From an uncultured archaeon (GTDB lineage Archaea; Iainarchaeota; Iainarchaeia; Iainarchaeales; 0-14-0-20-30-16): 5,861 bases of DNA. A program made the position numbers and the translations under genes. Shown piece by piece: positions 2,566 through 5,861 of this stretch (positions within the stretch are counted from its first letter, which is position 1; the number at the start of each line of letters is the position of its first letter). The stretch spans positions 24,655-30,515 of the forward strand of contig CAYZSS010000008.1 in assembly GCA_964480435.1 (NCBI GenBank), read 5' to 3'. The notes beneath the pieces were generated by a model. The model was not told the DNA's origin. It was given only the letters and a program-made list of their open reading frames with translations, and made no database searches.

Positions 2566-5500
2566 CTATTTCATTGTATCAAATACTGTTGCTGGGTTCC
2601 ACCAGAACTCTACTCCAGCTCCACCTTCAGGATTTGTTATACACATATAGTTGCTATCAACTAAATCGTATATTTGCTTAACTGTGCCAATATCCTTATT
2701 TAAAGGCATCAAAGTAAATTCTGTTCCTGCGTTTGAAGGGCTCAGGATTTTCATAGTATCACTCCATGAAATAAGCTTAAACTTTGCACTTTCTTTTGGA
2801 GGTAAATAAACCAGCCCTCTAAAGAATACTGTTGTAGTATCCACAGTAAGTAGCAAGCTCTCCTCATCCCAGTGCAAACCATATGCATTAGCCTTATATT
2901 CCCCCAAAGGAACATCAACTTTTGTTCCTATAGTATCAGGCATTCCTTGAAGATCTACAATATCTTCTCCAGATAATCCTTTACAAGAGAATTCATCATC
3001 AGATCCTTTTGTTCTAGGAGCGTACTTATCTTTATCATCACTACAGTACCCGTACCAATTAATTAAATTATTTCCTGCATTTACTGGCCCCTTTAGATCT
3101 CTTGAAATCATATAGAAACCATATGCATCTCCATCAGAGTTCTTATCTATATACATTGCTATTGGAGCAGGTACAGAAGGATAATAACTAATATTTTTCA
3201 ATACAGTATCTGCTTGGGTTCCCGCAGAAGCTATTCTTAATACCATTCCTTTATTTAAATTCAAAGTTTCCATATCCTGTTTTACTTCTATTATTACCTT
3301 AACTTGCGGATTGGATTTCTGTGTTAAAGTTGGTATTAAAACAGGGTTGTTTCCTGCATCTACATTAAACCACAATGTGTCCCCCTCAAATGCAATACCA
3401 TAACCCTCTCTCTTTAGTTCTCCATTTTCTACTCCAACTGTTGCATCTAACGGTAAGTAGTATAGAGGATTATTAGTAGTTTGAATAGGTTCCATATATA
3501 CTTTTATAGAATCTACTGTGTCTTTTACTTTTCCTTTATTATCAAATATAGTCCAAATCTTATTTGTACCAGTATACTTTATTACAATTTCTACTTTGTA
3601 TAACCCTGCTTTTGGTAAAGAGTAACCTGATGCAGTTAAAGCAGATTCTTTAGGAAGGAACTCTATTTTATCTGGTAATAAATCAGATAATATAGCCTCC
3701 ACATCTGTTTTTGTATTCATAAATGTTTGATTCAAAGCATATTCTTTGAAATCGCTTAGGAAGTCTTTTGTAAATCCATCCTTCATCATATAAGCTTGGA
3801 AGTTCAAAGTTTCGGAAATACCTTTTACATCAGCACCTGCTGCTAATCCCCATTCAATTAATTTATCAGTTGATTTTTCTAATCCCAATATTGCAGAGTC
3901 ATCATATGCAAATGCACTGCTTGTGTATGGAGTCACATAATTAAATGGTAAATCTCCTTGCTTTACATTATTAAATTGAACTTCTATTTTGTATGTGCTT
4001 TGATATAAAGTAACAAGTTCGTCAATTGATATTTCACTTGTACTTCCATTTTTTGATGTCAATTCAAATGATCCGTTAAGCACATTCATATCTTTTGTTT
4101 GCTGTGTATCAATTATTGTTATTACATAATTTCCGTTTACATCAGCCAGAGAGTTATTCTGCAAAACAACTTTCAGAGCATAAACTCCATTTGTACCAGG
4201 CCCTATATTCTTAAGGCTAACTTCACTTACTCCAATATATTCAGGAGTTATATCTTTTGTTTCAGTGAATAAAGTGTTGTTATTTGCTACATTTGGCTTA
4301 AATGACCCTAAACTATTATTTGCTGATTTCAATCTGTCAATTATTTCAATCATCAACTGTGTAGAATCACAATAAATTCCATTGCTACAAAGGTAGTCGG
4401 AACTACTTTTCCAGTCCCAGTCAAATGATACTTTTGGTTCCGCTGCCGGTCCTGTTGCCCCTGTTTTTCCGTTAGCTAAGAAACAGTTCTCCACGGGTAT
4501 ATTGTAATTCTTTTCTTGATCTTTTACATCAGTAAATAACATACTCATTGGAGCATATTCAGTTACAATTATATCCTCATCTTTTAGTGCTTCTGCTAGT
4601 TTTTCTCTATCTTTCTTTTCTACTTTTCCTTGATCTGTAGCAGATGCATAACTCATACTATCTGAGCTTGCTTGCAACCCAATTACACTTGTTGAAGAAG
4701 GCATACCATAACTATCTGCCCCGCTATAACCAGTCTGCATGCCAAACGCACTAGATCCTGATTGTGTTTGTCCATTTAGAAGAGAGTTAGATTGAGTAGT
4801 CCAACCTGCTTGATCATAGCTTTCACTTGCAGTTAGGTTCTGCAAATCCTTTCTATCATATGCCAACAACAAACTTAGGTTTTCTAATTTGTTATCCATT
4901 GTTCCTTTTTCAAATCCAATTGGATACATCTCAATTGCTTGATCTCCAATTCCTTTTACTAATTTATTAGTACTATCAAACACAGTAGTTACTGATCCTA
5001 CTTGTCCCGCTAAGTTACCTGTTTGCATTCCACCAATAATTTTCTTTTGTGATTCTGCAGTTACTATTGGAACACTACCAGGATTCATAACAATATAATC
5101 CTCTATAGTTGTTGGAACAGTTCTAGTGATTTTCTTTATTACATCCCCGTCATTAGATGCAATTCCAATTAGGTTACCGATTGCACCACCAATTGCACCA
5201 CCTAGCATTGCGCTAGTAGGGCCACCAAGAGCACCAAAAAATCCACCTACTCCACCAAGTATTCCAGACCATTTTGCTGTGTCTCCTTGGGTTTCAGGAT
5301 CCATTCCAATTAGGCTTCCTATTAGATAGCTTGCTCCTACAGAGCCTGCAGCAGCACCTATTCCAGAGCCTACCATATCTGTTACTCCTACTACCTTACA
5401 TTTTTTGCCTGTACAAATCCCTTTTGCACAGTCTGCATTTGCTTCACATACCCCACCTTCAGGTATTGTTCCTTTATTAGTTTCTACTTTAGCAGTACAT

Positions 5501-5861
5501 TTATTACTTACACAGCTAAATCCAGTTGCACAGTCTGCATTTGCTTCACAAGCACCACCGCCTATCGCCTGAACAATAGCGCCAGTGGCATCTGCCGCTA
5601 CACAAGCATTATCTTTACAAGTCTCGCCAGTGTTACAAGTTATGTTTCCACAAGTAGTAGCGGTTGCAGGTGGCGGAGAACCGGCAGAAGGAGCAGGTTC
5701 AGTACACTTTCCAGCAGTACAAACAAGATAAGACCCACAATCATTTTTTGTTGAGCTATTACAAGCACCACTAATCCTATCTTTATTTTTTTCTAAACAT
5801 TCTTTTTCATAACAAAACCCTGTAGTACATTCAGTATTAGTTCCACAACCAGCACCAACTA
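2566..5861 (-). CDS. Giant modular Cys-rich / glycine-zipper membrane or surface protein, 5'-partial (at least 1097 aa in window), no recognisable family
   Basis: The track ORF (2566..5376) begins at the first in-frame ATG. I translated 5377..5859 in the same frame and found no stop, giving 161 more codons that run off the window. The domain order is five 4-Cys modules, then a GxxxG-rich hydrophobic segment, then an S/G/Q/T-rich linker, then a long beta-strand-patterned region. Coding is also supported by the strong terminator downstream. Confidence 0.85.
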   Translation of the reverse strand, partial: VGAGCGTNTECTTGFCYEKECLEKNKDRISGACNSSTKNDCGSYLVCTAGKCTEPAPSAGSPPPATATTCGNITCNTGETCKDNACVAADATGAIVQAIGGGACEANADCATGFSCVSNKCTAKVETNKGTIPEGGVCEANADCAKGICTGKKCKVVGVTDMVGSGIGAAAGSVGASYLIGSLIGMDPETQGDTAKWSGILGGVGGFFGALGGPTSAMLGGAIGGAIGNLIGIASNDGDVIKKITRTVPTTIEDYIVMNPGSVPIVTAESQKKIIGGMQTGNLAGQVGSVTTVFDSTNKLVKGIGDQAIEMYPIGFEKGTMDNKLENLSLLLAYDRKDLQNLTASESYDQAGWTTQSNSLLNGQTQSGSSAFGMQTGYSGADSYGMPSSTSVIGLQASSDSMSYASATDQGKVEKKDREKLAEALKDEDIIVTEYAPMSMLFTDVKDQEKNYNIPVENCFLANGKTGATGPAAEPKVSFDWDWKSSSDYLCSNGIYCDSTQLMIEIIDRLKSANNSLGSFKPNVANNNTLFTETKDITPEYIGVSEVSLKNIGPGTNGVYALKVVLQNNSLADVNGNYVITIIDTQQTKDMNVLNGSFELTSKNGSTSEISIDELVTLYQSTYKIEVQFNNVKQGDLPFNYVTPYTSSAFAYDDSAILGLEKSTDKLIEWGLAAGADVKGISETLNFQAYMMKDGFTKDFLSDFKEYALNQTFMNTKTDVEAILSDLLPDKIEFLPKESALTASGYSLPKAGLYKVEIVIKYTGTNKIWTIFDNKGKVKDTVDSIKVYMEPIQTTNNPLYYLPLDATVGVENGELKREGYGIAFEGDTLWFNVDAGNNPVLIPTLTQKSNPQVKVIIEVKQDMETLNLNKGMVLRIASAGTQADTVLKNISYYPSVPAPIAMYIDKNSDGDAYGFYMISRDLKGPVNAGNNLINWYGYCSDDKDKYAPRTKGSDDEFSCKGLSGEDIVDLQGMPDTIGTKVDVPLGEYKANAYGLHWDEESLLLTVDTTTVFFRGLVYLPPKESAKFKLISWSDTMKILSPSNAGTEFTLMPLNKDIGTVKQIYDLVDSNYMCITNPEGGAGVEFWWNPATVFDTMK
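5424..5550 (-). repeat. Perfect 25-nt direct repeat, 102 nt (34 codons) apart, inside the Cys-rich coding region
   Basis: TTGCACAGTCTGCATTTGCTTCACA occurs at 5424..5448 and 5526..5550. On the minus strand both copies encode CEANADCA, at the start of consecutive 4-Cys modules (GGACEANADCATGFSCVSNKC and GGVCEANADCAKGICTGKKC). Confidence 0.9.

Follow-up and report, generated by a model that had tools for sequence, protein, structure and literature searches.

A family of DPANN proteins that end in a glycine-rich hydrophobic segment and a large cysteine-paired domain: candidate adhesin-like envelope proteins in Iainarchaeota

The stretch of DNA analyzed here (the window; 5,861 nucleotides of contig CAYZSS010000008.1, positions 24,655 to 30,515 of the forward strand, from an uncultured archaeon) carries on its minus strand a single large open reading frame (ORF) that is open at the window edge. 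On balance, and with moderate confidence, this ORF is considered to encode the C-terminal part, at least 1,097 residues, of an exported cell-envelope protein of Iainarchaeota (Diapherotrites, DPANN), which would be adhesin-like and held by a re-entrant glycine-zipper anchor. The protein ends in a conserved unit consisting of a glycine-zipper or hydrophobic hairpin, a spacer of ∼130–250 residues, and a disulfide-stabilized α/β plus β-sandwich domain of 620–660 residues. The family to which the domain belongs is not annotated in Pfam or NCBIfam and is confined to the DPANN lineages found here. The parts of the ORF have the following window coordinates:

2566..5861, minus strand: the ORF, candidate C-terminal part of a DPANN envelope protein (translation; 99% identical contig L014; orthologues L003, L005, and L004)
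5380..5859, minus strand: five four-cysteine modules, residues 1–160, lineage-specific (sequence analysis)
5152..5379, minus strand: glycine-zipper hydrophobic module, residues 161–236 (glycine content, GxxxG enrichment, homologues)
4810..5151, minus strand: conserved post-hairpin segment, residues 237–350, with ITRTVPTTIEDY..., KLVKGIGDQAIEMYPIGF, and NLSLLLAYDRKDL (jackhmmer, alignment A4)
4540..4809, minus strand: S/G/Q/T/Y-rich low-complexity spacer, then a charged pre-domain stretch, residues 351–440 (sequence, composition)
2569..4539, minus strand: conserved, family-defining C-terminal domain, residues 441–1097 (profile search, AlphaFold, cysteine conservation)
3910..4236, minus strand: immunoglobulin (Ig)-like β-sandwich inserted after the YCDSTQ helix, residues 542–650 (model strands 103–211, alignments A1 and A4)

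The C-terminal domain defines a large family with a conserved architecture

Translation confirmed what an earlier note, made from the sequence alone, had described: one very large ORF whose start lies outside the window (2566–5859, 1,097 sense codons, stop codon at 2566–2568), composed of a cysteine-rich array, a glycine-rich stretch, a linker, and a C-terminal region with six cysteines. No other frame of the window holds an ORF of similar size. A profile of the C-terminal domain, seeded by the window sequence, was searched exhaustively against 1.84 billion cluster representatives and matched at least 611 clusters (50% identity) at E ≤ 1e-3, 523 at E ≤ 1e-10, and 299 at E ≤ 1e-30, the latter over profile positions ∼1–620. 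In all of the matches listed, the alignment to the ∼620-position profile stops no more than a few tens of residues short of the C-terminus, and the domain is ∼620–660 aa long across the family. A hydrophobic, usually glycine-rich segment lies 130–250 residues upstream of it in most members. The window protein fits this pattern, with its hairpin at 161–236, its domain starting at ∼441, and its stop after residue 1097. The domain order, which the earlier note had called unusual, is not peculiar to this gene but the conserved architecture shared by at least 611 clusters. The family was not described in any of the literature searched. The productive route was the C-terminal domain as query together with the exhaustive profile search; word-indexed searches gave three relatives, were swamped by low-complexity candidates when the whole protein was used (one match), and returned no match for residues 150–470.

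The closest complete relative is found in L004 (Ca. ainarchaeum sp. STB_43; 58% identity in the domain, compared with 64% for the orthologues in L003 and L005). This fused protein of 2,603 aa begins with the motif MGLREFYY...DPIDK and a transmembrane (TM) helix, continues with CarboxypepD_reg (2e-21), Big_1 (6e-13), and MG-type Ig-like arrays, and then has the same glycine zipper, spacer, and C-terminal domain as the window protein. Fused giants of 2,100–3,250 aa follow this plan: a very highly conserved N-terminal motif (MG-x-x-D-x-x-K-D-x-YY-x-x-ED-K-YY-x-x-LD-K-x-D-x-x-IPVYK-x-x-DPIDK), a single strong TM helix, arrays of CarboxypepD_reg, Big_1, MG, and fn3 β-sandwich domains, the hydrophobic segment, the spacer, and the domain. 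At the N-termini of P0012–P0150 and in L004 (4229–4420), the motif reads MGxxDxxKDxYYxxEDKYYxxLDKxDxxIPVYKxxDPIDKxxPSF over ∼40 residues, directly before the single TM helix; it is presumably cytoplasmic, and no Pfam model covers it.

Short forms of 760–1,020 aa consist of a Sec-type signal peptide, the glycine-rich segment, the spacer, and the domain. Two of them, P0007 and P0034 (979 or 983 aa), are encoded 17–55 nt downstream of a gene for a protein of 1,620 or 1,840 aa with Ig-like arrays (CarboxypepD_reg-type Pfam matches). The 1,840-aa partner of P0034 has the N-terminal motif and TM helix of the giants and lacks the C-terminal domain. Judged by these sequences, the short forms are evidently split versions of the giant gene and not a separate invention. 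The split-gene loci are L020 (4462–12952) and the P0007 locus, and in each the C-terminal half has its own Sec signal peptide. The window gene could be either a fused or a split form, the split point falling just before the Cys/Gly-rich region. Family genes also occur as tandem paralogues, two to four per array (L004, 4229–22013; L006–L011; L020). In L007, L009, L010, and L020, they are followed by genes for three to five small (78–145 aa) multi-TM proteins without Pfam match, and these sets are homologous among the four loci (blastp E 1e-10 to 1e-33).

For the window copy, the word "giant" is unproven beyond the lower bound of 1,097 aa, its N-terminus lying beyond the window edge. This N-terminus was not found by exact-protein look-ups of the large ORF and two of its neighbors, nor by an exact 37-mer scan of metagenome contigs, and the protein-guided metagenome scan did not reach it, contig L014 spanning residues 599–1097 only. 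The missing N-terminus would be compatible with a pseudogene or an assembly artefact whose frame is broken upstream of the window, as would two of the relatives, L001, in which the gene is split into ORFs of 765 and 147 aa, and L003, which holds a run of N. This explanation is hardly credible, however: the 1,097 codons are free of interruption, whereas the other frames close within tens of codons; L014, a contig of the same species from an independent metagenome, sample Ga0268280, is 99% identical across residues 599–1097; the nearest full-length orthologue is an intact ORF of 2,603 aa; and the conservation over 611 clusters looks like purifying selection. Of the concern in the earlier note that the frame might be interrupted, nothing was found in the 1,097 codons, and the part upstream lies beyond the window.

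The domain has paired cysteines and a confidently predicted fold

The domain contains the motifs NC..NGKTGATG, WDW, YCDSTQ (followed by a long helix), MKDGFTKDFLSDF, YYLPLDATVGVEN..REGYG, and FWWNP, and the protein ends in ...FWWNPATVFDTMK without a C-terminal TM helix. YCD(S/A)TQ, KDG(F/Y)xxDFxxDF, RxGYG, and FWWNP each occur in all or in at least 90% of the members. As had been counted before, the C-terminal part of the window protein has exactly six cysteines (459, 491, 497, 939, 959, and 1073). Over 144 aligned domains, Cys 459, 491, 497, and 1073 are conserved in 99–100% and Cys 959 in 95% of the sequences. The usual partner of Cys 959 is a cysteine at the extreme C-terminus (89% of the members), which the window subfamily lacks; it has Cys 939. 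The remaining cysteine columns are gained and lost in strict pairs (phi 0.92–0.99; e.g., 119 members with both compared with two and one with a single cysteine). Such strict pairing is a signature of disulfides and therefore places the domain outside the cytoplasm.

An AlphaFold model of the domain, based on a 50-sequence alignment, was confident (mean predicted local distance difference test [pLDDT] 83.3, predicted template modelling score 0.75, 345 residues with pLDDT ≥90). According to this model, the NC...TGxTG and WxW motifs lie in an N-terminal stretch, which is followed by a 20-residue helix opened by YCDSTQ, a seven-stranded Ig-like sandwich (∼542–650), an α/β region with the invariant KDGFxxDFxxDF helix, and several β-sandwich layers ending with FWWNP. 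The stretches GVYALKVVLQN, STYKIEVQF, and GLYKVEIVIKY, proposed earlier to be strand-like, fall on predicted β strands. The Ig-like insert is the least conserved part (occupancy 0.54–0.72) and is absent from P0003–P0006 and P0010.

Neither the sequence nor the model of residues 441–1097 led to a known family. Foldseek searches against PDB and BFVD, to which the statement that the domain has no structural relative refers, gave only Ig-like matches of ∼120 residues (GH2 Ig domains, Wzt carbohydrate-binding domain), of which the Ig-like insert is probably one source, or long alignments with TM-scores ≤0.16; they thus produced no confident match of the kind that would have spoken against the earlier note. 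Sequence and profile searches found nothing below E = 0.3 among PDB chains, Pfam, NCBIfam, and PHROGs contained no family for the C-terminal region of the window protein, and no Pfam family recurred when 50 family members (alignment A3) were scanned singly. The β-rich domain of ∼860 aa that had been called unassignable is, therefore, indeed without a match to a known family, but the conserved domain is shorter, ∼657 aa (441–1097).

It is improbable that the domain is an extracellular enzyme displayed on a stalk, e.g., a glycan- or polymer-processing one. D, R, Y, W, N, and Q residues that never or hardly vary are clustered in KDGFxxDFxxDF, PLDxxVG, and RxGYG, and the top Foldseek rows were multidomain glycoside hydrolases (GH66, GH2). 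However, these rows had TM-scores of 0.13–0.16 and root mean square deviations >25 Å, or covered only the ∼120-residue Ig-like subdomain, and no catalytic domain was aligned; in addition, none of the 50 members matched a Pfam, NCBIfam, or PDB profile. The rows being Ig-subdomain matches or low-TM noise, assignment as a glycoside hydrolase was rejected.

The glycine-rich segment is marginally hydrophobic and probably flanked by extracytoplasmic regions

Residues 161–236 contain 29% glycine and only five charged residues, and GxxxG occurs 11 times, compared with 5.8 ± 1.8 in composition-matched shuffles (5 of 1,000 shuffles reach 11), which bears out the very glycine-rich hydrophobic stretch of the earlier note. 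The segment comprises two to three helices parted by an acidic loop (DPETQGDTAKW) and a GGP kink; AlphaFold placed helices at 159–184, 188–212, and 214–235 (pLDDT 54–75). By jackhmmer, the module is homologous, and not just alike in composition, in L004_o1, P0003–P0010, and P0144. It resembles Gly-zipper_Omp (PF13488), Gly-zipper_OmpA (PF13436), and C19orf12 (PF20721) in its (G/A/S)xxxG runs and two adjacent hydrophobic helices, but those families are small lipoproteins or membrane proteins, whereas here the segment sits inside a large exoprotein; the best matches to the three models had E-values of 3–9 (7–8 bits compared with gathering cut-offs of 25–30). Summed on the Hessa scale, which is position-independent and crude, the window helices score +4.1 to +7.1 kcal/mol and the glycine-rich helices overall ∼+3 to +7 kcal/mol, compared with −6 kcal/mol for the N-terminal TM helix of L004_o1 and −0.3 to −3.9 kcal/mol for signal peptides. 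Because they are only marginally hydrophobic, the glycine-rich helices are unlikely to be stop-transfer segments.

The regions next to the segment are conserved to different degrees. Upstream, residues 1–160 contain 20 cysteines in five modules (C-x4-7-C-x4-5-C-x4-C); a P/A/S/T linker separates the second module from the third. They had no match in Pfam or NCBIfam at E ≤ 1, including the curated Cys-repeat models, except for a negligible one to PF18671 (E 0.31, residues 142–149), and jackhmmer found no match among 152 family proteins. The cysteine-rich repeat array noted before is thus real but lineage-specific and outside the conserved core. Downstream, the supposed low-complexity linker is S/G/Q/T-rich and of low complexity at ∼351–400, but residues 237–350 are conserved in the closest relatives, with jackhmmer matches in L004_o1, P0007, P0008, and P0009 (AlphaFold confidence is low there). 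The spacer at 351–440 differs in length between relatives (alignment A4). At an overall pLDDT of 39.8, the AlphaFold model of residues 1–470 was not good enough to search for similar folds.

The regions on either side of the hydrophobic stretch very probably lie outside the cytoplasm, as the earlier note had proposed, and the stretch itself would then be a hairpin or a non-spanning element. Five independent lines point to this topology. The split members P0007 and P0034 have their own Sec signal peptide directly ahead of the hairpin-plus-domain module, which puts the domain outside the cytoplasm. Cysteines are paired within the domain. In 16 distant members, a strongly hydrophobic, hairpin-like TM element has cysteines on either side (LCAW...hairpin...DPC/EDC), as if they formed a disulfide clamp. 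The composition of the domain (K+R 8.8%, S/T/N/Q/G 32%, Thr 7.9%) matches that of the L004_o1 Ig array (10.3%, 30.9%, and 7.8%, respectively) and not that of the cytoplasmic neighbors (15–18%, 16–23%, and 2–3%), and the domain is therefore placed outside the cell. The fifth line is the marginal hydrophobicity of the helices. It is, by the same evidence, very improbable that an odd number of membrane passes leaves the C-terminal domain in the cytoplasm, as in a receptor-like protein with an extracellular Cys-rich or Ig part. Three helices drawn by AlphaFold in 159–235 would allow it, and so would the broadly fixed distance of the hydrophobic segment upstream of the domain in most members. Against this stand the covarying cysteine pairs and five near-invariant cysteines of the domain, its exoprotein-type composition, the cysteine clamps on both sides of the hairpin in distant members, and helices scoring far above the insertion threshold.

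A proposed surface protein with a stalk, a hairpin, and a head

An exported, disulfide-braced head behind a marginally hydrophobic glycine-zipper hairpin is well supported, and so is the placement of this head at the end of, or encoded beside, an N-terminally anchored stalk of Ig-like domains. The hairpin probably holds the head at the membrane. Based on the analysis as a whole, the C-terminal piece probably mediates contact with other cells or with the cell envelope, and the best reading is that the module is the membrane-proximal or tip part of an adhesin-like DPANN envelope protein. From these features, we infer the following course. The protein would be exported by Sec, via a signal-anchor far upstream at its N-terminus (as in the fused 2,603-aa orthologue) or via a signal peptide just past the window edge (as in the split members). 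The marginally hydrophobic glycine-zipper helices, not acting as stop-transfer segments, would reach into the membrane as a hairpin whose two ends remain outside; their glycine faces may let them pack against each other. The hairpin would keep the Cys-braced head at the cell surface, where the head could be the conserved end by which a fibrillar adhesin-like protein binds or assembles. Reach and variability would come from the Ig-like stalk, which is variable, and from lineage-specific inserts, in this case the five four-cysteine modules.

This plan has a counterpart in bacterial RTX adhesins of the LapA/SiiE type, which consist of an anchor, a stalk of Ig-like repeats, and a terminal non-repeat domain. 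Fused members of the family (L004_o1, P0012, P0051, and others) likewise have one anchor, long β-sandwich arrays, and one conserved terminal non-repeat domain. They differ in being archaeal, in having an N-terminal signal-anchor TM helix with the ∼40-residue, presumably cytoplasmic motif and not type I secretion or sortase signals, in lacking RTX repeats, in placing the glycine-zipper hairpin before the terminal domain, and in this domain being a new family. The Ig-like repeat stalk is present in L004_o1 and other fused members; the N-terminal side of the window protein is beyond the window. Residues 441–1097 did not match a recognized adhesive or lectin family in Pfam, NCBIfam, or PDB, and Foldseek gave generic Ig-like matches only.

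Among DPANN archaea, the SPEARE proteins of Nanohaloarchaeota (8,900–9,400 aa, with a VirB4/TraG-like ATPase domain) have been proposed to have a role in host contact (PMC10266531). They, too, are very large, belong to the cell surface, and combine an N-terminal export signal with Ig-like or fibronectin-like domains in tandem, but no sequence relationship or shared domain was detected. Pfam searches found no ATPase domain in the window protein or its fused relatives, and no protease or other Pfam domain in the former. Homology to SPEARE was rejected on this ground; the AAA_14 gene next to the large ORF does not resemble VirB4 and is missing from the syntenic region of L004.

Several points weigh against the adhesin-like reading. 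The N-terminus is beyond the window, hence stalk, anchor, and signal peptide of the window copy are not in view. With the N-terminal TM helix and the hairpin in one and the same membrane, the 1,500-residue Ig array would become a closed loop, which is unusual for an adhesin. The Hessa-scale sum is crude, as noted above, and the AlphaFold model is poor at residues 1–158 and 237–470. The conserved small membrane proteins encoded downstream of family genes hint at a larger machine. Finally, "adhesin-like" is drawn from the architecture only, because the fold has no informative relative.

One of the main rivals, though an unlikely one, is that the module attacks or bridges membranes. The glycine-zipper helices would stay out of the membrane of the producing cell and, once exported, insert into that of another (host) cell as a pore, a fusion-type lesion, or an anchor. 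At the same low level of probability, the C-terminal domain would recognize the target, fused giants being tethers across two cells and split forms secreted effectors. The zipper-like glycine spacing of the segment resembles that of pore-forming glycine zippers and Gly/Ala-rich fusion peptides, and helices of ∼+3 to +7 kcal/mol would probably pass Sec rather than stop transfer. In the split forms, the glycine-rich region lies ∼20–90 residues past the signal peptide, near the mature N-terminus, and the glycine-rich part of P0003 with the following spacer has a weak match to a tape-measure PHROG (E 0.024). Many DPANN archaea need cell–cell contact (PMC11329633; PMC10266531), which also counts in favor. 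On the other side, Foldseek searches of PDB and BFVD showed no similarity to viral or toxin folds, no relatives were found on viral contigs, AlphaFold, at low confidence, predicted neither a heptad repeat nor a long coiled coil downstream of the hairpin, and the strongly hydrophobic, Cys-clamped hairpins of distant members look like constitutive anchors. One report describes Iainarchaeota as possibly free-living (PMC10936187), which likewise counts against it. A more specific version is slightly less likely still: hairpin and C-terminal domain would form a contact-dependent membrane-insertion device, exported in soluble or stalk-tethered form, whose head recognizes another cell and whose helices are driven into its membrane. 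If so, the resulting anchor, pore, or fusion-like lesion could give DPANN archaea access to the host cytoplasm, and the conserved small membrane proteins downstream would be candidates for partners or immunity factors.

Relatives of the family were not found on viral contigs. A viral origin was rejected for this reason and for the lack of a PHROG family, and the window protein does not have the features of a class I viral fusion protein: in addition to having no viral-contig relatives, it lacks a C-terminal TM helix, its BFVD TM-scores were ≤0.14, and AlphaFold, at low confidence, predicted no long helix in 237–440.

A structural function in the envelope is about as unlikely as membrane attack. 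The protein would then belong to the S-layer itself, anchor it or support it as a stalk, or act as a spacer of the pseudoperiplasm, its domain self-assembling into a lattice or docking to the S-layer instead of binding to foreign surfaces. A domain that is the most conserved part of an otherwise variable protein is what would be expected of a self-assembly interface; several tandem paralogues per genome and an acidic, Thr/Ser/Asn-rich, low-Arg composition typical of archaeal envelope proteins also fit. However, the experimentally supported S-layer protein of Micrarchaeota, SLP_Mh, is a different protein (PF05123, 101 kDa; bioRxiv 10.1101/2021.04.28.441871). It shares with the family the type of an abundant envelope protein, the DPANN clade, the N-terminal signal or TM helix, and an acidic, hydrophobic-rich composition, but it differs in family and in size from the fused members (2,100–3,250 aa). 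Such sizes, combined with divergent tandem paralogues, are unusual for lattice proteins, and N-glycosylation sequons are not enriched (7 observed, 6.8 expected). PF05123 and other S-layer models had no match in the window protein, three giants, eight mid-size members, the 50 members of A3, or the L004 orthologues. With no PF05123 and a protein different from SLP_Mh, assignment as an S-layer protein was rejected.

To return to the adhesin-like reading, giant Ig-rich surface proteins of DPANN archaea are known; a large and well-populated family of terminal domains with an intercalated glycine-zipper hairpin is new. The relatives, with their tiny DPANN genomes, spend 7–8 kb per gene, often in two to four tandem copies, on this family, which implies a central role at the cell surface, where DPANN archaea meet their hosts and environment. 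With at least 611 clusters and a confident AlphaFold model, the ∼650-residue domain is ready to be defined as a new domain family, and the module of hairpin, spacer, and head, whether fused or encoded separately, is a tractable candidate for a molecule of surface attachment or membrane contact in DPANN archaea.

Host and gene neighborhood

The same-strand neighbors of the large ORF encode an AAA_14-type ATPase, ScpA, and ribosomal protein L40e (Pfam, NCBIfam); L40e and ScpA being of the archaeal type, the host is an archaeon. Genome relatives were found only in metagenome-assembled genomes (MAGs) titled Candidatus Iainarchaeum, 'ainarchaeum', or uncultured archaeon (scan of one genome per GTDB species), and cluster look-ups returned Candidatus Diapherotrites and Candidatus Micrarchaeota, with members always named "hypothetical protein" or "carboxypeptidase regulatory-like domain-containing protein". 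The small-genome DPANN host suspected in the earlier note is borne out by this, all relatives belonging to Iainarchaeum/Diapherotrites or Micrarchaeota MAGs. The gene order after the large gene is alike in the window and L003 (a conserved intergenic block, the AAA_14 gene, ScpA, L40e); L004 likewise has ScpA downstream but lacks the AAA_14 gene. A functional link to the adjacent AAA_14 ATPase was rejected for its absence from L004, and no operon partner is evident for the window lineage.

One further feature lies just past the stop codon of the large ORF:

2531..2557, minus strand: terminator-like hairpin GGGTGAT-AAA-ATCACCT (2557..2541) followed by T8, 9 nt past the stop codon

One such site (hairpin plus T8) was found, compared with 0.2 expected from shuffles. 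The intergenic region between the stop of the large gene and AAA_14 (2272–2565) is 78% identical to L003 2526–2884 (minus strand), the proteins being only ∼64% identical, and contains near-perfect blocks shared by the two: GGAGTATATATGGGTTGCGACTATACCCGCA, CAGTACACTGAAAC (twice), and TGGCATTTTTTGTCA(C/T)AA (twice). The region may encode a small RNA, contain a small plus-strand ORF (MFQYTE.KE...YTET), or be regulatory; the only line from Rfam, for SNORA79, was below threshold (E 0.38).

The AAA_14 ORF is listed from TTG 2271, but ATG 2250 is probably the true start, which gives a protein of 422 aa, as called in L003. Centered ∼28 nt upstream of ATG 2250, at 2272–2284, a TATA-like TTTATAAA box would fit a leaderless archaeal mRNA. 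From its TTG start, the ScpA ORF (344–1009) shares 28 nt with the end of the AAA_14 gene. Its orthologue in L004 begins with MQTTLEDFF (209 aa), which suggests ATG 976 as the true ScpA start, without overlap.

As to the incomplete relatives, the family gene of L001 (1035–3808; ORFs of 765 and 147 aa) is flanked by a YqaJ-type exonuclease gene on one side and a MazE/PIN pair on the other, and the run of N in L003 (98–2525) stands in place of the Ig-like insert and is an assembly gap. The plus-strand ORFs at 5126–5572 of the window (67, 68, and 55 aa; Pro/Ile/Ala-rich, e.g., PIAPPIAPP) are an antisense mirror of the Gly/Ala-rich coding sequence and not genes. The G+C content is 25–31% in the neighboring genes and 31–45% over the large gene; its rise to a peak of 42–45% at the Gly/Ala/Cys-rich 5′ part (5000–5861) is due to the Gly/Ala-rich coding region.

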